NCBI GenBank assembly: GCA_045539475.1
Contig: JAZQFJ010000093.1
Coordinates: forward strand, 3,540 to 67,539
From: Eubacteriales bacterium
GTDB lineage: Bacteria; Bacillota; Clostridia; Oscillospirales; JAAYXM01
Length of the DNA stretch: 64,000 bases
Reading direction: 5' to 3'
Both the position numbers and the translations under genes were made by a program. The notes under the pieces were generated by a model. The model was not told where the DNA came from. It did no database searches and worked only from the letters and a program-made list of their open reading frames with translations. Within the stretch, counting starts at the first letter, position 1. The number at the start of each line of letters is the position of its first letter. Shown here one piece after another: positions 17,123 to 59,793 of the stretch.

Positions 17123-17668
17123 TCAAATTTCTGATTTACGGATAACCGTAAGCTTAATACGTCCGTACTTATATTCGCGGTACGAATACTTGTCCGAATC
17201 TGCCTTCAGAACCTCCGAAGAAGAATCTGTTTCACATACTATTATACCATAATCTGACAATATGTCAAATGAATATATTATTTTCAGCGCTTTTTCGAGC
17301 AAATTGCTGTTGTACGGCGGATCTAAAAAGATAATGTCATACTTTGTGCCTTTAGTCAGCACCTCGGTAAAATCGCCGCGATGTATGCTGATTAAATCAG
17401 CAAAATCACAACGCTTTATATTTTCTTTGATTATATCTGCAGCGCGTCTTGAATTTTCCACCGCAACAGCGCTTCTGGCACCGCGGCTTATTGCCTCAAT
17501 CGCAAGCTGACCGCTTCCGGAGAACAAATCAAGAACACGCGCATTTTCTACATCAAATTGAATTATATTGAATATGGATTCCTTCACTTTATCTGTTGTT
17601 GGGCGTGTTTCTTCCCCTTCAAGAGCCTTAAGTACGCGACCGCGCGCAATTCCCGAAATTACTCTCAT
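17123..17668 (-). CDS. rsmD: 16S rRNA (guanine966-N2)-methyltransferase RsmD
   Basis: RPTTDKVKESIFNI, VLDLFSGSGQL and FLDPPY motifs. Confidence 0.9.
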   Translation of the reverse strand: MRVISGIARGRVLKALEGEETRPTTDKVKESIFNIIQFDVENARVLDLFSGSGQLAIEAISRGARSAVAVENSRRAADIIKENIKRCDFADLISIHRGDFTEVLTKGTKYDIIFLDPPYNSNLLEKALKIIYSFDILSDYGIIVCETDSSSEVLKADSDKYSYREYKYGRIKLTVIRKSEI

Positions 17669-53944: not shown

Positions 53945-54664
53945 ATGGAACTGGATCTGAAAAAGACCATATCGGTTCTTTTCTCTAAAATTTGGCTGAT
54001 AGTTGCGGTCACGATGCTCAGTGGCGTGCTTTTTCTGATAAGCAATCTCTTTTTCGTTACCCCTATGTACACGTCCCAGGCACTTCTCTACATATCAAAT
54101 ATGTCGGAGCGCAAGTCTTCCATCGTTACTACCGGTGACGTCAGCGTATCACGTGAGCTTGTCAATACATTCGTTGTTATCCTCAACAGCCGTACCGTTC
54201 TCGACAAGGTTGCAGAGCAGTCGGGGCTCGACTACACCTCAACGGAAATCAAAGGAATGATTTCAGCAGAGGCGGTTTCCTCTACCGAGGTTTTTCGTAT
54301 CTCCGTTACCCACGACGACCCAACGGAGGCACAGATTATTGCGGATACAATCCTCAAGGTCGCGCCGAGTGAGATAAAGCGCGTTATGAATGCGGGTGCT
54401 GTGTCCATTATCGACTACGCAACGCTTCCGCTTTCTCCATCATCTCCGAATATTCCGAGAAATACCGTCCTTGGTGCTATGCTTGGTGCCATGCTTACGG
54501 TTTTCATAATTCTCCTTACGGAAGGGCTTGACAACCGCGTAAAGAGCGAGTTTGTCCTTTCTGAGAACTTTGACCTTCCCATCATCGGCATCGTTCCGTC
54601 ATTTAAGCTTGCGGAGAAGACGCTGTCCGGCGGTAAGGTGAAGCGCAGAAGGAGGGTTGGATAA
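53945..54664 (+). CDS. Polysaccharide chain-length determinant / BY-kinase transmembrane modulator (Wzz, CpsC/CapA-type)
   Basis: Two TM segments flanking an extracellular domain. Basic C-terminus. Overlaps the kinase start by 1 nt. Confidence 0.8.
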   Translation: MELDLKKTISVLFSKIWLIVAVTMLSGVLFLISNLFFVTPMYTSQALLYISNMSERKSSIVTTGDVSVSRELVNTFVVILNSRTVLDKVAEQSGLDYTSTEIKGMISAEAVSSTEVFRISVTHDDPTEAQIIADTILKVAPSEIKRVMNAGAVSIIDYATLPLSPSSPNIPRNTVLGAMLGAMLTVFIILLTEGLDNRVKSEFVLSENFDLPIIGIVPSFKLAEKTLSGGKVKRRRRVG

Positions 54665-55425
54665 TGGGACGTATAAATATCCCCTTTCTTAAAAAGAAGA
54701 AAAAGATCAGTACATATGTAAAAAGTGAGCTTCTTACGGAAAACAGTCCGTTCATTATTAATGAAGCGTACAAATCCATGCGAACAAACCTTATGTTTAT
54801 GCTTTCGGGCAACAAGAAGGTAATCGCGTTTACAAGCTCGGCGGCAAACGAAGGAAAAACAACAACATGCCTCAATACCGCTGTTGCGTTTGCTCAGACC
54901 GGTCACAAGGTTCTTATAATAGATATGGATATGAGAAAACCTCGTGTTCATCGCTATTTTGAAATTCCGTCATCTCCCGGATTTTCTGATAAGCTCGGCG
55001 GCTTCATAAAAGAGCTCCCGATATCGAGAACGGAATATGAAAACCTTTGGGTGTTGCCTGTCGGAACAATTCCGCCAAGCCCGCCGGAGCTTCTTATGAC
55101 CACCATCTTTGACGAGGTTCTCTCGCAGATTCGTGAGGAATATGACTACATATTTATCGACACTCCGCCGATACACGTTGTTACAGACCTTGCGATTATC
55201 GCAAGTAAGCTTGACGGAGTTGTGTTCGTTGTTCGCGAGAACACTGTTGCGTTGGAGGTTGTAAAACAGTCGATAGACAGTCTTGAGCGCGTGGGTGCAA
55301 AAGTCCTTGGGTTTATCTTAAACGATTCTGTCGGTGATTCGCTCTTTACGCAGTACCGATACAGACGTAAGTACAAGGCACGTTACGGCTACACCTATGG
55401 CTACAGCCTTCCATCAAAGGAATAA
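54664..55425 (+). CDS. Tyrosine-protein kinase (BY-kinase catalytic subunit, CpsD/CapB-type)
   Basis: Walker A SSAANEGKTT, A-prime LIIDMDMRKP, Walker B IFIDTPP, C-terminal Tyr cluster YRYRRKYKARYGYTYGY. Confidence 0.9.
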   Translation: MGRINIPFLKKKKKISTYVKSELLTENSPFIINEAYKSMRTNLMFMLSGNKKVIAFTSSAANEGKTTTCLNTAVAFAQTGHKVLIIDMDMRKPRVHRYFEIPSSPGFSDKLGGFIKELPISRTEYENLWVLPVGTIPPSPPELLMTTIFDEVLSQIREEYDYIFIDTPPIHVVTDLAIIASKLDGVVFVVRENTVALEVVKQSIDSLERVGAKVLGFILNDSVGDSLFTQYRYRRKYKARYGYTYGYSLPSKE

Positions 55426-55428
55426 GCG

Positions 55429-56133
55429 ATGTATATTGATTTTCATTCTCACATTTTACCCGGTGCTGACCACGGTTCCGACAGCATAGAGATGAGTCTT
55501 TCTCAGCTTGAGTATGCAGCGGCGGCAGGAGTAAGCACCATTGTTGCCACTCCGCATTTCTACCCGGATGTGGATAATATCCCGGATTTTCTTGTACGCC
55601 GGGAGAAGGCATACGATGAGCTTTGCGCCGCAAATGCGAGCGGAATAAAAATTGTGAAGGCGGCAGAGGTTCAGCTTGGGATAAATCTTGACAAAGAGCC
55701 GGAGCTTAAAAAGCTCTGTATCGGGGAAACGGATTATATTCTCATTGAGTTTCCGCCTGAGCCATGGCCGTGCTGGGTTCTTGACGCAATTACGGGAATT
55801 ATCCGAGACAGACGCCTTCGGCCGGTGTGTGCACACATTGACAGAATATCCCACATCGGACGGGAAAAGATATTAAAGCTGAATATTGACGTTCAGATGA
55901 ACGCCTCGGCACTTCTGGATTCAAGGCGTCACAGAAGATATTATCTTGACCTTATCGCCGACGATGCGGTTCATGTGCTCGGAAGCGACACCCACGGCGA
56001 CGGTAAGATGTCATATAAAGATTTTTCGTATGCAGTAAAGAAAATAGGCAAGATGATGCCGTATCTTACTGCAAACGCAGAAAAAATTATCACGCCGCGT
56101 GACGGTTCGCGGCAAATCAAATTAAGTCTGTAA
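55429..56133 (+). CDS. PHP-family tyrosine-protein phosphatase (CpsB/CapC-type)
   Basis: MYIDFHSHILPGADHGS, TPHF, and LGSDTHG metal-binding motifs. Confidence 0.9.
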   Translation: MYIDFHSHILPGADHGSDSIEMSLSQLEYAAAAGVSTIVATPHFYPDVDNIPDFLVRREKAYDELCAANASGIKIVKAAEVQLGINLDKEPELKKLCIGETDYILIEFPPEPWPCWVLDAITGIIRDRRLRPVCAHIDRISHIGREKILKLNIDVQMNASALLDSRRHRRYYLDLIADDAVHVLGSDTHGDGKMSYKDFSYAVKKIGKMMPYLTANAEKIITPRDGSRQIKLSL

Positions 56134-56191
56134 GGCAAAATTATACATTGCCTGCAATAGGAAAATTTTTTCAAGGAAGGTGTTTAACACT

Positions 56192-58336
56192 ATGAAAAAG
56201 ACAATGAAAATCATGCTTGCAGCAGTTCTCAGCATTGCGATGCTTCTGACCTTCGCTGCAGCAGCAGAAGACACACTCACAAACGCAGGTACGGCTGATC
56301 TTATCTCAGCAACTGCACCCGAAAGCGACACAATTGATGCTCACCACGATGAGCATGCTCTTGATGTCTTTTCCGATGCTCCGTCACAGGACAGCTGGAA
56401 GTATCAGGGTCTTAACTGTGCTGTAAATAACGGCACAATGACAGGTCATGATAACAAAATCCGTCCGGACGATTCTCTCACACGTGCAGAGATGGTAACC
56501 ATGATGGTTCGCGTTCTCGGCGCACACGCAACAAAGGCTGAGATTGAGCATTACGTTGACGTTGTTGCGGATCAGTGGTACTACGAGGCACTTCAGTCCG
56601 GTGTTGCTGTTAAGATTATCAACGGCTCCGGCAACAAGATGATGCCGAACAGCCCCATCACACGTGAGCAGACCTTCACAATTCTTGCCCGTACATTCCT
56701 CTTCTCTTCGAAGAGCGATGCAACAGCAGATTTTGTTGACAACAGCAAGGTTTCTGCATGGGCAAAGAATGCAACAAACGCTCTTATCGATGCTGAAGTT
56801 GTACGCGGCGACAACACAAAGACACTCCGTCCGCAGGACAACGTTACCCGCGCAGAGTTTGCCGCAATGCTTGACCGCGTTGCCTGCCTCTTTGTAAACA
56901 CAAATGCAAGCTACTCCGGCAAGAAGGTTACAGGCAGCCTTATCCTCAACGATGCAACGGCTGACCTTACAGGCGCAGTTATCGAAGGCGACCTCATCAT
57001 CACTGATGCTGTAGGCGCAGAGAATATTGACCTTTCCAATGTTACGGTTACAGGCCGTATCGTTATCCGTGGCGGTGAAATTAACCTCAACGAAGGCACA
57101 ACAGCTGCACAGGTTGTTGTCGGTAATCCGACAAGCGCTTCCAAGGTTACAGCTGCAGAAGGCGTAGAGGTTCCGAAGGTTGTTATCGCTGAAAATGCAA
57201 ACGACGTTGAAATCGACGTTCCGGCTAAGGAAGTCGTTATCGATTCTTCCGAGAACGAAGTTACAATCAATAAGGACGCAGAAGAAGTTACAGTCAACGG
57301 TTCCGACAACACCGTTAAGGTTACAGAGGGAACAAAGGTTGACAGCGTTAAGACCGAAGGTAACAACACAAACGTTGCAGTTGACAAGGGCGCTAAGGTT
57401 GAGAACGTAACGGTTAACGGTGAATCCTCTAAGGTTACAGGCTCCGGTGACGTCGGCAATGCTACAGTCAACGGCTATGACTCCAAGGTTGAGACCCCGA
57501 ACACAAACGTTACAGACAACAGCCCTGCAACAAAGCCGGGTTCTGATGATACAACAAAGCCGAGCACAGGCGATTCCACAACCACACCTGATACAGGTAA
57601 GGATGATGGCAAGACCGAAGGTCCAAACTCCAAGCCGAGTGATTCTAACAACAGTGCATCCCTCCCGAGCGGCAACAAGCCGAGCACACCGAGCACACCA
57701 AGTGCACCGAGTTTAGAATTCGACACGCTCAACAGTTATGTAACTTATCAGATTGGTGAAGGTCAGGAAGAAAAAGCTTTTGGAATGCATTATATCTATG
57801 ACGATTTAATTCCGACGCTCGTATTCGATTTTGGTACTGAATTGGTAGAGCATGAAGAACTTAACGTTGATGCTGCAGATTATGCTGAAGTTAAACTTAA
57901 TGAGCTTAAGGTAGTAGCAAAGGACATTGAAAATGAAGATATCACATCTGTAGGTTCTGTGAGTTTTTATGAAGCAACGGGATTCAAAACCGATGTTGAA
58001 ATCCCGCTCAAAGACATTCTCCAGGCAATGGTAGATTCAACATCTAGGTCTATTGCAGGACTCATTGGAATTGAGACAGATGGAGAAGGCAAGGTAACAA
58101 CTGAAGAGTACACGCTCTTAAAGCTTGCTACAGTTCTCGATGCAGCATGTAATATGTATGTATACGACGAATCAGAAGATAAATGGGTTCAGAATCTCTT
58201 TGCTGATTATGGAATTGAGTGCGCATACGAGGATGTCACTGGTGAGCCTGATCTGAACAGTGCAAAAGCATCGTTCACTGCAAAGATTGATGGCGTTACG
58301 GTTAAGATTACAATGATTATTCCGCGTTTAGACTAA
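56192..58336 (+). CDS. Cell-surface protein: signal peptide, three SLH domains, beta-helix-like short repeats, P/T/S-rich linker, acidic C-terminal domain
   Basis: SLH-like segments (RPDDSLTRAEMVTMMVRVLG; ITREQTFTILARTF; VTRAEFAAMLDRV). Repeat run VTV/VEI... Linker KPSTPSTPSAPS. Confidence 0.85.
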   Translation: MKKTMKIMLAAVLSIAMLLTFAAAAEDTLTNAGTADLISATAPESDTIDAHHDEHALDVFSDAPSQDSWKYQGLNCAVNNGTMTGHDNKIRPDDSLTRAEMVTMMVRVLGAHATKAEIEHYVDVVADQWYYEALQSGVAVKIINGSGNKMMPNSPITREQTFTILARTFLFSSKSDATADFVDNSKVSAWAKNATNALIDAEVVRGDNTKTLRPQDNVTRAEFAAMLDRVACLFVNTNASYSGKKVTGSLILNDATADLTGAVIEGDLIITDAVGAENIDLSNVTVTGRIVIRGGEINLNEGTTAAQVVVGNPTSASKVTAAEGVEVPKVVIAENANDVEIDVPAKEVVIDSSENEVTINKDAEEVTVNGSDNTVKVTEGTKVDSVKTEGNNTNVAVDKGAKVENVTVNGESSKVTGSGDVGNATVNGYDSKVETPNTNVTDNSPATKPGSDDTTKPSTGDSTTTPDTGKDDGKTEGPNSKPSDSNNSASLPSGNKPSTPSTPSAPSLEFDTLNSYVTYQIGEGQEEKAFGMHYIYDDLIPTLVFDFGTELVEHEELNVDAADYAEVKLNELKVVAKDIENEDITSVGSVSFYEATGFKTDVEIPLKDILQAMVDSTSRSIAGLIGIETDGEGKVTTEEYTLLKLATVLDAACNMYVYDESEDKWVQNLFADYGIECAYEDVTGEPDLNSAKASFTAKIDGVTVKITMIIPRLD

Positions 58337-58377
58337 TTAACTAAGATTATTTTTCCATCTTTTCGTGCCCACTTTAC

Positions 58378-58412
58378 GAAACACCCGCGGGGACTTTCCC
58401 CGCGGGTGTTTC
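58378..58412 (+). terminator. GC-rich hairpin after the SLH gene (weak U tract)
   Basis: GAAACACCCGCGGGGA-CTT-TCCCCGCGGGTGTTTC. Confidence 0.5.
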
Positions 58413-58428
58413 GGTGTGTGTTGTGGGC

Positions 58429-58458
58429 TTGACATAGTAAAGTGCTTTGTGCTACAAT
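58429..58458 (+). promoter_or_regulatory. Promoter TTGACA-18-TACAAT for the small-peptide transcript
   Basis: Read directly. Confidence 0.6.
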
Positions 58459-58566
58459 ATAAAAGGTTGGAGACAAGCACAAAGAGAGCTACCACAAACG
58501 GGTAGGCGGTTAGCCCTTTCGTAATCACGGAGGGCATTTTCCCTCCGGAAAGGAGGGCGAGTGCTT

Positions 58567-58653
58567 ATGATGTACATAACCTTGCAGGATTTTCTGCAAA
58601 TTTGTTTGATTGTCATAGCGCTTATTGGTCTGTATTTTCAGACAAAAAAATAA
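58567..58653 (+). CDS. 28-aa hydrophobic peptide, candidate type I toxin (holin-like toxin type)
   Basis: MMYITLQDFLQICLIVIALIGLYFQTKK. AAGGAGGG 9 nt upstream. Below the ORF-track cutoff. Confidence 0.6.
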   Translation: MMYITLQDFLQICLIVIALIGLYFQTKK

Positions 58654-58722
58654 CCGCCCCGGCCAAGGTTCGGTTATTTTGACTGATATCACGGGCTGAC
58701 CGTCTGCCGGTAGCCTCTTTGC
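58641..58722 (-). ncRNA. Predicted ~80-nt antisense RNA (candidate antitoxin) overlapping the peptide ORF 3-prime end
   Basis: Bounded by the minus-strand promoter (58757-58729) and hairpin 58648-58679, followed on the minus strand by seven T. The ends are inferred, not measured. Confidence 0.4.
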
Positions 58723-58728
58723 ATTTAT

Positions 58729-58757
58729 ATTATATATTGATACGGTTGATTTGTCAA
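58729..58757 (-). promoter_or_regulatory. Consensus promoter TTGACA-17-TATAAT on the minus strand, facing the peptide ORF
   Basis: Plus-strand TGTCAA at 58752-58757 and ATTATA at 58729-58734. Confidence 0.55.
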
Positions 58758-58767
58758 CCGTTTTTTC
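58742..58767 (+). terminator. Rho-independent terminator (plus strand)
   Basis: ACGGTTGA-TTTG-TCAACCGT followed by TTTTTT. Confidence 0.6.
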
Positions 58768-58806
58768 TTTGCAAAATAAACAATTCGAGAGTAACACTCT
58801 CTCCTG

Positions 58807-59010
58807 CTAATTTATCCCAAATGTAATTATCTCAGAAATATCGCAATTTAGCGCCGTGCATATTTTGTCTAATACATAGCTGTCGTATCGCGTTACTTTG
58901 TTTTTAAAGTATTTGTCTATTATCTGATATTGAATGCCCGTGTCTTTTGCAAGCTGATATCTGCTTATTCCTTCTCTAATCAGTTTTTCATCAAGTGTCA
59001 GTTTTACCAT
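58807..59010 (-). CDS. Small XRE/Cro-type HTH protein (67 aa)
   Basis: MVKLTLDEKLIREGISRYQLAKDTGIQYQIIDKYF. GGAGG 8 nt upstream of ATG 59010. Confidence 0.8.
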   Translation of the reverse strand: MVKLTLDEKLIREGISRYQLAKDTGIQYQIIDKYFKNKVTRYDSYVLDKICTALNCDISEIITFGIN

Positions 59011-59033
59011 AATTCCCGCCTCCGGTATGTGTT

Positions 59034-59255
59034 TTAACCGCGGTTCTTCCCGGTGTTTTTTAATCCAAGAACATAATCTGCAGAAACGTTGTAAAATTTG
59101 CATAAAGTAATCAAATGACGAATAGGCATCTCGTTAACACCGTTTTCATACCGCGAGTAGACCTGTTGTGTTGTGTCAAGAATTTCTGCAATTTTTTGCT
59201 GAGACAGGTCTCTGTCCTCGCGGAGCTCCTTGATAATTTCATAATATGTTTTCAT
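59034..59255 (-). CDS. Small XRE-type HTH protein (73 aa)
   Basis: LREDRDLSQQKIAEILDTTQQVYSRYENG. Confidence 0.8.
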   Translation of the reverse strand: MKTYYEIIKELREDRDLSQQKIAEILDTTQQVYSRYENGVNEMPIRHLITLCKFYNVSADYVLGLKNTGKNRG

Positions 59256-59281
59256 AGTCAGTCACCTCAAAAACATATTAC

Positions 59282-59303
59282 AATACACCGTATCAGGTGT
59301 ATT
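59282..59303. promoter_or_regulatory. Perfect palindrome AATACACC-GTATCA-GGTGTATT, candidate XRE operator
   Basis: Lies in the divergent region and overlaps the -35 of the plus-strand promoter. A half-site-like GGTGTAT recurs at 59321-59327. Confidence 0.5.
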
Positions 59304-59330
59304 GAATTTACATCACATCTGGTGTATAAT
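59302..59330 (+). promoter_or_regulatory. Promoter TTGAAT-17-TATAAT for the SLOG-like gene
   Basis: Read directly. Confidence 0.5.
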
Positions 59331-59352
59331 ATTTTCTGAGGAGATGATAAAT

Positions 59353-59793
59353 ATGCGAGTTTGTACATTTTTCGGGCATCGGGAAACACCGGAGGAGGTA
59401 AAGGAGAAATTATCCTCTGCGATTGAAGATTTAATAGTAAACTGCGGTGTAGATACATTTTATATGGGATGCGAGGGTAAATTTGATGCATATGCCCGCG
59501 CGGCAGTGAAAGAATTGTTGAAGAAATATCCACATATAAAATATAACGCAGTTCTTGCATATGTGCCGTCTGAAAAAAGGTATAGTGAATATATGGATTA
59601 TTCCGATACAATTGTTTTTGACGGAATAGAAAAAAGCCATCCGAGATACGCGATAGCATCGCGCAACGAATGGATGATAAAGAAGTCAGAATATGCAATT
59701 ACATATATTAAATATCCTGTCGGTGGAGCATATAAATACGCCGAAGCCATGAAAAGAAAAGGCAAAACCGTAATAAACCTTGCGGATGTGTAG
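59353..59793 (+). CDS. SLOG-superfamily / DUF1273-like protein (146 aa)
   Basis: MRVCTFFGHRE N-terminus is typical of the Clostridial YpsA/DUF1273-like family. GAGGAG 9 nt upstream of ATG 59353. Confidence 0.55.
   Translation: MRVCTFFGHRETPEEVKEKLSSAIEDLIVNCGVDTFYMGCEGKFDAYARAAVKELLKKYPHIKYNAVLAYVPSEKRYSEYMDYSDTIVFDGIEKSHPRYAIASRNEWMIKKSEYAITYIKYPVGGAYKYAEAMKRKGKTVINLADV

Follow-up and report, generated by a model that had tools for sequence, protein, structure and literature searches.

The question raised by this locus is whether a short, unannotated stretch between two genes encodes a complete type I toxin-antitoxin system. It belongs to contig JAZQFJ010000093.1 of a Eubacteriales bacterium, from which a stretch of 64,000 nucleotides (nt; "the window" in what follows) was analysed, and an earlier reading made from the sequence alone (the original prediction) had described part of it as an unannotated type I toxin-antitoxin-like module. 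We revisited this description from a comparative perspective, and the evidence from relatives of the module, from selection on its open reading frame (ORF), from a long-range RNA helix, P1, and from antisense signals supports it: the cassette at 58423-58800 is likely to be a type I toxin-antitoxin system of the TxpA/BsrG/SprG ("holin-like toxin") kind. As judged from sequence, this assignment is made through intermediate sequences and shared architecture, the window copy itself lying below strict membership by hidden Markov model (HMM) or covariance model (CM).

Anatomy of the module and its relatives

Promoters were scored as matches out of 12 to TTGACA plus TATAAT, with a spacing scan over 2.3 kb, and the extents of the messenger RNA (mRNA) and of the antisense RNA were derived from promoter and terminator signals. 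The elements to which we refer are listed here, with SD for Shine-Dalgarno sequence, UTR for untranslated region, aa for amino acids and bp for base pairs.

58423-58800: whole cassette, 378 bp, delimited by alignment against contigs L017-L021
58429-58458, plus strand: promoter of the putative toxin mRNA, -35 TTGACA at 58429-58434, 18-nt spacer with TG, -10 TACAAT at 58453-58458, 11/12
58465-58770, plus strand: predicted toxin mRNA of ~305 nt, probable transcription start near 58465, from promoter and terminator
58480-58486, 58488-58493 and 58501-58516, plus strand: 5' arm of P1, from folding, duplex energy and relatives
58513-58535, plus strand: pyrimidine tract GCCCU and decoy GGAGGG (58529-58534), together alternative hairpin 1, from sequence and a constrained fold
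58541-58557, plus strand: SD-sequestering hairpin, with anti-SD CCCUCC at 58541-58546, a GGAAA loop and the SD GGAGGG at 58552-58557
58567-58653, plus strand: putative toxin ORF, 28 aa plus stop, MMYITLQDFLQICLIVIALIGLYFQTKK, from ATG at 58567 to TAA at 58651-58653, from ORF scan and conservation
58642-58722, minus strand: predicted antisense RNA (candidate antitoxin), ~80 nt, from promoter and terminator
58647-58680: hairpin across the stop codon, the antisense intrinsic terminator; A7 at 58644-58650 gives U7 on the minus strand
58693-58721, plus strand: 3' arm of P1, within the antisense-complementary region, from folding and relatives
58757-58729, minus strand: antisense promoter TTGACA-17-TATAAT, 12/12
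58742-58767, plus strand: intrinsic terminator of the toxin mRNA, hairpin at 58742-58761 followed by T6

Most of these elements had been named in the original prediction. The consensus scan located both of its promoters, TTGACA-18-TACAAT (plus strand; 11/12 and extended by TG) and TTGACA-17-TATAAT on the minus strand (12/12); CCCTCC and the two GGAGGG motifs lie at the positions that it gave; the 28-aa hydrophobic ORF is confirmed; its antisense terminator hairpin followed by seven T was located at 58647-58680, with seven U on the minus strand; and its second plus-strand terminator is present as a hairpin with T6. The ATG of the ORF lies 9 nt past the SD and is one of two adjacent ATGs, which gives a product of 28 or 27 aa, MMYITLQDFLQICLIVIALIGLYFQTKK being one hydrophobic helix with a KK tail, and the antisense -35 box falls inside the stem of the mRNA terminator. 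The claim that no credible ORF of 60 aa or more exists here also stands, its sole challenger being a 90-aa minus-strand ORF at 58525-58797, which we rejected as spurious, as it has no homologues and is unconserved (37 aa in the closest relative).

The two promoters of the module are the best pair of sites in the 2.3 kb scanned. Across both strands of the whole 64-kb window, nine promoter-like sites reach at least 11/12, compared with 1.8 ± 1.3 in shuffled sequences, and since two of these nine bracket the 330-bp module, the promoter pair around it exceeds chance. Other sigma-70-type promoters at 11-12/12 in the window are found at 17268 (-), 34503 (-) and 30878 (+) with 30795 (-), the last two forming a divergent pair ~80 bp apart near 30.8 kb.

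Relatives were retrieved by scanning viral and metagenome contigs for exact matches to the 17-nt anti-SD/SD hairpin, CCCTCCGGAAAGGAGGG. The full module architecture was present in five of the eight viral-contig matches and in ~35 of the metagenome matches listed (at least 120), which, with the window included, gave at least 26 unique modules from ~40 copies, originating from gut, rumen and viral contigs. A profile search across all the retrieved DNA confirmed the copies and added a few truncated or degenerate ones. The closest relative among the matches listed, MSYITLQDLLQFCLVIIALISLIFQSRK, is 68% identical and is carried by L046 and six other contigs. Among the degenerate copies, L069 60-420 (+) joins the module's leader and initial seven codons to the C-terminal portion of a DegV-like ORF, and at L125 9050-9420 (+), a frameshifted ORF passes the usual stop and runs to 50 aa. 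The following protein-level searches with the window product were negative: an exact look-up of the 30-aa product was empty, phmmer with the 30-aa version gave no match among 1.84 billion representatives, and a tandem-duplicated peptide query found no homologue among 5.8 billion proteins. A back-translated DFLQICLIVIA pattern had no match in viral contigs, and the phage and plasmid collections, searched by BLASTN with the module, returned chance 25-nt matches only.

The predicted antisense gene recurs with the module. In most relatives a minus-strand promoter of 10-12/12 is found just past the P1 3' arm (weaker in the MVTYENLF subgroup), which puts the predicted antisense start 69-92 nt past the stop codon; most also have a plus promoter in the corresponding position, with a score of 9-11/12. 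According to the folding calculations, a minus-strand hairpin of between -16 and -26 kcal/mol, followed by a run rich in U, occurs in every one of the 26 unique copies; the hairpin takes in the stop codon's complement, and the terminal Lys codons, read on the opposite strand, supply the U-tract. In the window, the antisense RNA is predicted to run from ~58722 to ~58643, complementing the last ORF codons, the stop, the 3' UTR and the P1 3' arm. Since the plus-strand terminator lies past the antisense -35 box, the predicted mRNA covers the predicted antisense RNA entirely; plus-strand terminators at or past this box are also found in L026, L073 and L149. These signals agree with the originally proposed ~80-nt antisense RNA, fully complementary to the mRNA, and the 3'-overlap layout then likened to TxpA/RatA and BsrG/SR4 matches those systems, and likewise SprG/SprF (PMC8594479, PMC3834814).

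The long-range helix P1 and the leader

The strongest structural feature of the transcript, absent from the original prediction, is P1, a long-range helix of 29 bp in which 58480-58516 of the 5' UTR pairs with 58693-58721 of the 3' UTR. The minimum free energy of the plus transcript (58464-58775) is -123.5 kcal/mol, compared with -81.3 ± 4.4 in shuffled sequences (z = -9.55), and P1 accounts for most of this signal, its duplex energy being -51.3 kcal/mol where shuffles give -22.3 ± 4.1. In the full-length fold, the SD is held by CCCUCC at 58541-58546, in a helix lengthened by pairing of 58532-58539 with 58559-58566. One pairing proposed earlier, between AAGCAC and GTGCTT, fared differently: the AAGCAC site lies at 58475-58480 rather than at 58476-58481, and the pairing is seen only when the leader is folded in isolation. 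In the full-length fold it is displaced, GAGUGCUU pairing with GGGCAUUU (58532-58539) and 58480-58486 belonging to P1. We rejected it as a conserved feature, confined as it is to the leader folded alone.

P1 was found in all window-like relatives, with duplex z values of -4 to -9. As MAFFT misaligned the variable outer helix, RNAalifold recovered the inner helix only, which is conserved in sequence (GGUAGGCGGUU.../...AACCGUCU...) and is 93.5% paired, compared with 34-57% when the partner is slid. The inner helix contains one invariant G.U and several U.G pairs that would be mismatched if read on the other strand. The invariant G.U, present in nine of nine sequences, corresponds in the window to 58506 with 58703 (alignment A4, columns 32/120) and falls within the GGUAGGCGGUU motif; in an otherwise Watson-Crick inner helix, it may be a recognition element, for instance for a ribonuclease. 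The outer helix varies in sequence by subfamily (GCUACC/GGUAGC, GCUGCC/GGCAGC, UCUGCC/GGCGGA, CAUACC/GGUAUG and others) while remaining 96% canonical, with at least two Watson-Crick pair types at 7 of 10 positions. When partners were exchanged among the sequences, the canonical fraction dropped to 77 ± 3%, and none of 5000 swaps reached the observed value, a result that is supportive and not a formal probability, the outer register having been set by hand and the sequences being related. The covariation that had been suggested as a check among homologous loci is thus found, the leader structure being conserved with compensatory changes in P1.

The leader offers competing partners. The pyrimidine tract GCCCU can pair either with the decoy GGAGGG or with the G-rich start of the P1 3' arm, and the CCUC...GGAGGG arrangement is present in every relative. 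The 17-mer itself is identical across peptide subfamilies that are merely 15-40% identical, an identity that follows from the construction of the search. In thermodynamic models, the accessibility of the SD drops in 16 of 23 members once the antisense-covered region is blocked; for L024, the partition-function model gives an unpaired SD fraction falling from 0.37 to 0.006.

The peptide family and its known counterparts

Several features of the ORF argue that it encodes a translated hydrophobic peptide under purifying selection and is not incidental to a structured RNA. It is intact at 27-32 codons in nearly all copies, with a Lys/Arg tail and a start 4-9 nt past the SD, the exceptions being one copy of 42 codons, L125 (50 codons) and the DegV-like fusion of L069. 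Comparison of the window with L046 gives 14 synonymous and 12 non-synonymous differences, corresponding to proportions of 0.82 at synonymous sites (pS) and 0.18 at non-synonymous sites (pN); pS exceeds pN in 98% of 210 pairs, and the entropy by codon position is 1.15/0.73/1.48, position 2 being the most conserved. The reading frame, whose conservation and purifying selection the original prediction had proposed to examine, thus appears conserved in the family.

The search with the Hol_Tox model that had also been proposed gave a divided answer: the window peptide itself is not matched, while 12 of 21 family peptides on the same RNA scaffold match Hol_Tox (PF16935). Six of these exceed its gathering score of 23.3 bits (43.1, 39.0, 29.5, 27.3, 27.0 and 24.4 bits), and the relative nearest to the window peptide, at 68% identity, falls short of this cut-off with 21.5 bits. 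When the family profile was built with that relative and the window peptide left out, the window peptide scored 13.5 bits and ranked second among 2000 composition-matched shuffles. For the window peptide, NCBIfam returned PepG1 only, at E = 0.077. Against the PDB, the family profile finds the SprG1(31) toxin of S. aureus (7NS1, E = 1.2e-5), which is also the sole PDB match of the window peptide alone, with 11 of 22 residues identical (50%), including IALIGL (pairwise E = 4e-5). The predicted likeness to holin-like toxins is thus lacking as a direct Pfam match and is seen by way of the Hol_Tox-matching relatives and of SprG1. Since the window peptide has no Hol_Tox match and the window RNA no BsrG match, its membership is, on these profile comparisons, transitive, through intermediate sequences.

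On the RNA side, the Rfam BsrG model (RF01412) spans its full length on two of the viral-contig modules, L022 (30.6 bits) and L028 (30.4 bits), which are the most canonical of the relatives, with E = 1.4e-5 on 501 nt; P1, the CCCUCC...GGAGGG hairpin and the terminator are all matched in the alignment. These modules (L022 9734-9970 and L028 1018-1255) encode canonical Hol_Tox peptides, MDTFQTIVVLLAFGSFLIALLTYIDKRK and METFQAIMAMFAFGSFLLNLLTYIEKRK, respectively. Since they score ~30 bits, compared with a gathering score of 55 bits, this clade seems to escape the Rfam model at the threshold curated for it.

How closely, then, does the module resemble the systems already described? The BsrG peptide has 38 aa, compared with 28 aa in the window, and TxpA has 59 aa. 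In anatomy, the module resembles bsrG/SR4 of the Bacillus subtilis prophage SPbeta, with which it shares an mRNA of ~300 nt (296 nt for bsrG) encoding a short hydrophobic peptide, a helix P1 that joins the mRNA 5' end to the 3' UTR, a GC-rich SD hairpin just 5' of the start codon, and a convergent cis-antisense RNA over the 3' UTR and the end of the ORF, with the P1 3' arm inside the antisense-complementary region (PMC3834814). In bsrG mRNA, nt 1-35 pair with 232-262 in P1, the SD hairpin branches off P1 and the terminator follows directly; once SR4 binds, the 5' arm is released and the SD helix lengthens from 4 to 8 bp (PMC3834814). With the P1 3' arm of the window located within the antisense-complementary region, binding of the predicted antisense RNA would therefore free the 5' arm. 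The two systems differ in that SR4 is longer, with a non-complementary 5' stem-loop (PMC3834814), whereas the window antisense RNA is ~80 nt and fully covered, which is a minor difference from the known systems; in that the SD hairpin of the window has six GC-rich pairs plus an extension, in contrast to 4 bp in free bsrG mRNA; and in that the host is a Clostridia gut bacterium whose copy lies outside any recognisable prophage.

The closest solved peptide is that of sprG1/SprF1 from Staphylococcus aureus (7NS1), a single alpha-helix with a basic C-terminal tail. This system was first identified through homology to txpA/RatA (PMC8309996), and its antisense RNA overlaps the sprG1 3' end (PMC8309996, PMC8594479). 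Unlike the window module, sprG1 encodes two peptides (44 and 31 aa) in one frame on a pathogenicity island (PMC8309996); the comparison made here is at the level of the peptide. The name "holin-like toxins" is that given to the TxpA family (Fozo et al., PMC2887945). With txpA/RatA (the B. subtilis skin element, and EF3263 of E. faecalis), the module shares the peptide superfamily, a 3'-overlapping convergent antisense RNA and an SD in a double-stranded region (PMC3834814), although RatA binding has been reported to leave the SD helix unchanged (PMC3834814). As in hok/Sok, the full-length toxin mRNA would be kept inert by having its 5' end paired with its 3' end (PMC3834814), whereas hok encodes a peptide of an unrelated family, Sok overlaps the 5' region, and the hok mRNA is activated through 3' exonucleolytic trimming; the window antisense RNA would instead target the P1 3' arm itself. 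Type I systems of the same class are found in Clostridia, often on prophages, in Clostridioides difficile (CD2517.1/RCd8 and others), with toxins of 34-59 aa and no sequence similarity to the TxpA/BsrG family (PMC6563280), unlike the window peptide, which groups with the Bacilli-type Hol_Tox family. TxpA-like sequences in Clostridiales have been noted, bioinformatically only, in Clostridium bolteae (PMC6563280).

Locus, mechanism and rival explanations

The module is a strain-variable, accessory cassette of 378 bp, since the flanks of all five closest-relative contigs retrieved (L017-L021, representing 23 contigs that encode the neighbouring 73-aa XRE protein identically) align to the window at 54646-58422 and 58801-59394, whereas 58423-58800 has no counterpart in any of them by BLASTN and alignment. 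In its place, these contigs have 37 bp with a bidirectional terminator. Within the window, the cassette is located between two convergent genes, bounded by the terminator of an SLH gene (58377-58413) and by the stop codon of an HTH_26 gene (58807), and its neighbours are the SLH surface protein, two small XRE regulators, a YpsA/SLOG protein and ClpB; no second module copy is present in the 64-kb window. The XRE genes are not part of the cassette, because they are kept in the relatives that lack it. Some relatives of the module adjoin Phage_Gp15, Prophage_tail, KilA-N or a large serine recombinase and others ordinary chromosomal genes, while the L046 module adjoins another SLH protein.

The neighbourhood has features of its own. 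The SLH terminator is a perfect 17-bp hairpin with a 3-nt loop, conserved in relatives; matches of the Rfam sodF small RNA and rliE models at 58377-58413 were dismissed as chance, the hairpin being this terminator. Identity to the flanks of L017-L021 is 96-98% towards ClpB, compared with 76-88% over the SLH gene (56180-58336 (+), 718 aa), a difference that suggests a fast-evolving or recombining surface protein. One Oscillospiraceae metagenome-assembled genome (MAG; SIG480) carries the YpsA/SLOG gene, 59302-59793 (+) in the window, at least five times, several of these copies lying at contig ends; at the loci L001, L005, L006, L014 and L015 the gene is conserved with unrelated flanks, and L017-L021 have segment 59395-59737 deleted, which suggests that YpsA behaves like a repeated or mobile gene. 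Its matches at 97% identity are Oscillospiraceae MAGs from gut and rumen, which makes a member of the Oscillospiraceae the probable host, and the module is absent from the 16 YpsA loci found by a scan of species-representative genomes with YpsA.

As a working model of how a type I system with this anatomy would operate, the strong plus promoter would yield the ~305-nt mRNA for a 28-aa single-helix membrane peptide, kept translationally silent twice over, by the GC-rich anti-SD/SD hairpin and by P1. The convergent promoter inside the 3' UTR would yield the ~80-nt antisense RNA, ending at the terminator over the stop codon, and this RNA would pair perfectly with the 3' end of the mRNA, probably first via complementary loops of the hairpin that the two share. 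The resulting duplex of ~80 bp would be cleaved by RNase III, as in bsrG/SR4 and txpA/RatA, and the pairing would strip the 3' arm from P1; it is plausible, from the structural models, that the freed pyrimidine tract then captures the decoy GGAGGG and leaves the anti-SD to hold the SD closed. Should the antisense supply fall, synthesis of the peptide would follow, with damage to the membrane. Both the toxicity and the antisense control of the window module are expected here by analogy with bsrG/SR4 and txpA/RatA.

Several points weigh against this interpretation. The window peptide, in its 28-aa and 30-aa versions, has no Pfam match at E <= 10, Hol_Tox included, and the window RNA (326 nt) has no Rfam BsrG match even at E <= 10 and no credible match to any other Rfam family. 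The copy lies outside any recognisable prophage, with no phage genes nearby. No refolding is predicted for it, the SD being ~99% paired with an accessibility of 0.009 in both states. The use of a single exact 17-mer as bait makes the hairpin identity a product of the search and biases the sample, and the hand-set register of outer P1 limits the swap control as described. Finally, some members of such families show no measurable toxicity, as reported for YhzE-2 despite its antisense RNA (Fozo et al., PMC2887945).

This last example, together with the chromosomal position of the window copy, bears on what we regard as the chief rival, in which the same RNA anatomy serves a small membrane peptide with a regulatory, non-toxic role, tuned by the antisense RNA, for instance a ComI-like inhibitor, and no addiction or toxin module is involved. 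Family peptides do show sub-threshold NCBIfam matches to ComI, a competence inhibitor (up to 30.6 bits compared with a cut-off of 55, E = 2e-7), although the window peptide itself has none, the best-supported homologues SprG1, TxpA, BsrG and EF3263 are toxic on overexpression (PMC8309996, PMC2887945, PMC3834814), and silencing in multiple layers (SD hairpin, P1, a consensus antisense promoter) is typical of harmful products; we consider this explanation unlikely. A cassette acquired by recombination could also have become an inactive relic, no longer expressed or functional in this strain, and its absence from the closest relatives, its single copy in the window and the degenerate copies elsewhere (the frameshifted L125 and the DegV-like fusion L069) would fit such a history; with every element of the window copy intact, from the promoters (11/12 and 12/12), SD, ATG and ORF to the 29-pair P1 and both terminators, we hold it to be improbable.

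One could further speculate that the element is a non-coding structured RNA, or resembles a miniature inverted-repeat transposable element (MITE), with an incidental short ORF. The very strong folding (z = -9.6 when rounded), the long-range complementarity reminiscent of terminal inverted repeats and the insertion/deletion polymorphism of the cassette all lend themselves to this idea, which is nonetheless very hard to reconcile with the purifying selection and codon-position pattern of the ORF, with P1 arms lying 57 and 79 nt inside the cassette ends, with G.U and U.G pairs, one of them invariant, that favour a plus-strand RNA helix over a DNA repeat, and with a single copy in the window and no Rfam family match. 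The least probable of the alternatives, to which we attach hardly any weight, is a phage holin used for lysis: apart from the Pfam name "holin-like" and the occurrence of some relatives in prophages, the window has no endolysin or lysis cassette adjacent to the module (its neighbours being SLH, two XRE, YpsA and ClpB), and a promoter of its own, a dedicated antisense RNA and a 28-aa single helix fit type I toxins rather than the holins that time lysis.

To come back to the assignment as a type I toxin-antitoxin system, a broader and considerably more tentative proposal is that the window copy belongs to a large clade of BsrG-like cassettes which has gone essentially unannotated and which occurs in Clostridia of the gut and rumen and in the phages of these bacteria, with a three-way leader competition, antisense allostery and spread as a minimal unit. 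Such a clade may be united by the invariant 17-nt anti-SD/SD hairpin and a conserved competition in the leader, in which the contenders may be the pyrimidine tract, the G-rich start of the P1 3' arm, the decoy GGAGGG, and the anti-SD with the SD. The antisense RNA may act allosterically at a distance, by re-routing the pyrimidine tract to the decoy and so locking the SD, and the 378-bp cassette may spread by replacing intergenic terminators. Gene callers would overlook such a clade because its peptides are under 30 aa.

The family is invisible to protein-based annotation, as reflected in the window peptide, which is unmatched among the 5.8 billion and 1.84 billion predicted proteins searched. 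The 17-nt RNA motif, which led to dozens of copies from gut, rumen and viral contigs among the matches listed, provides a practical handle for cataloguing these cassettes, and cassettes of this type are usable as counter-selection markers and orthogonal RNA switches (PMC6563280, PMC12721322). The natural covariation of P1 constitutes a ready-made mutant series for leader refolding of the bsrG type in a second, distant lineage. We thus regard the finding as useful rather than surprising: an unannotated, probable relative of bsrG/SR4, txpA/RatA and sprG/SprF in a Clostridia genome.

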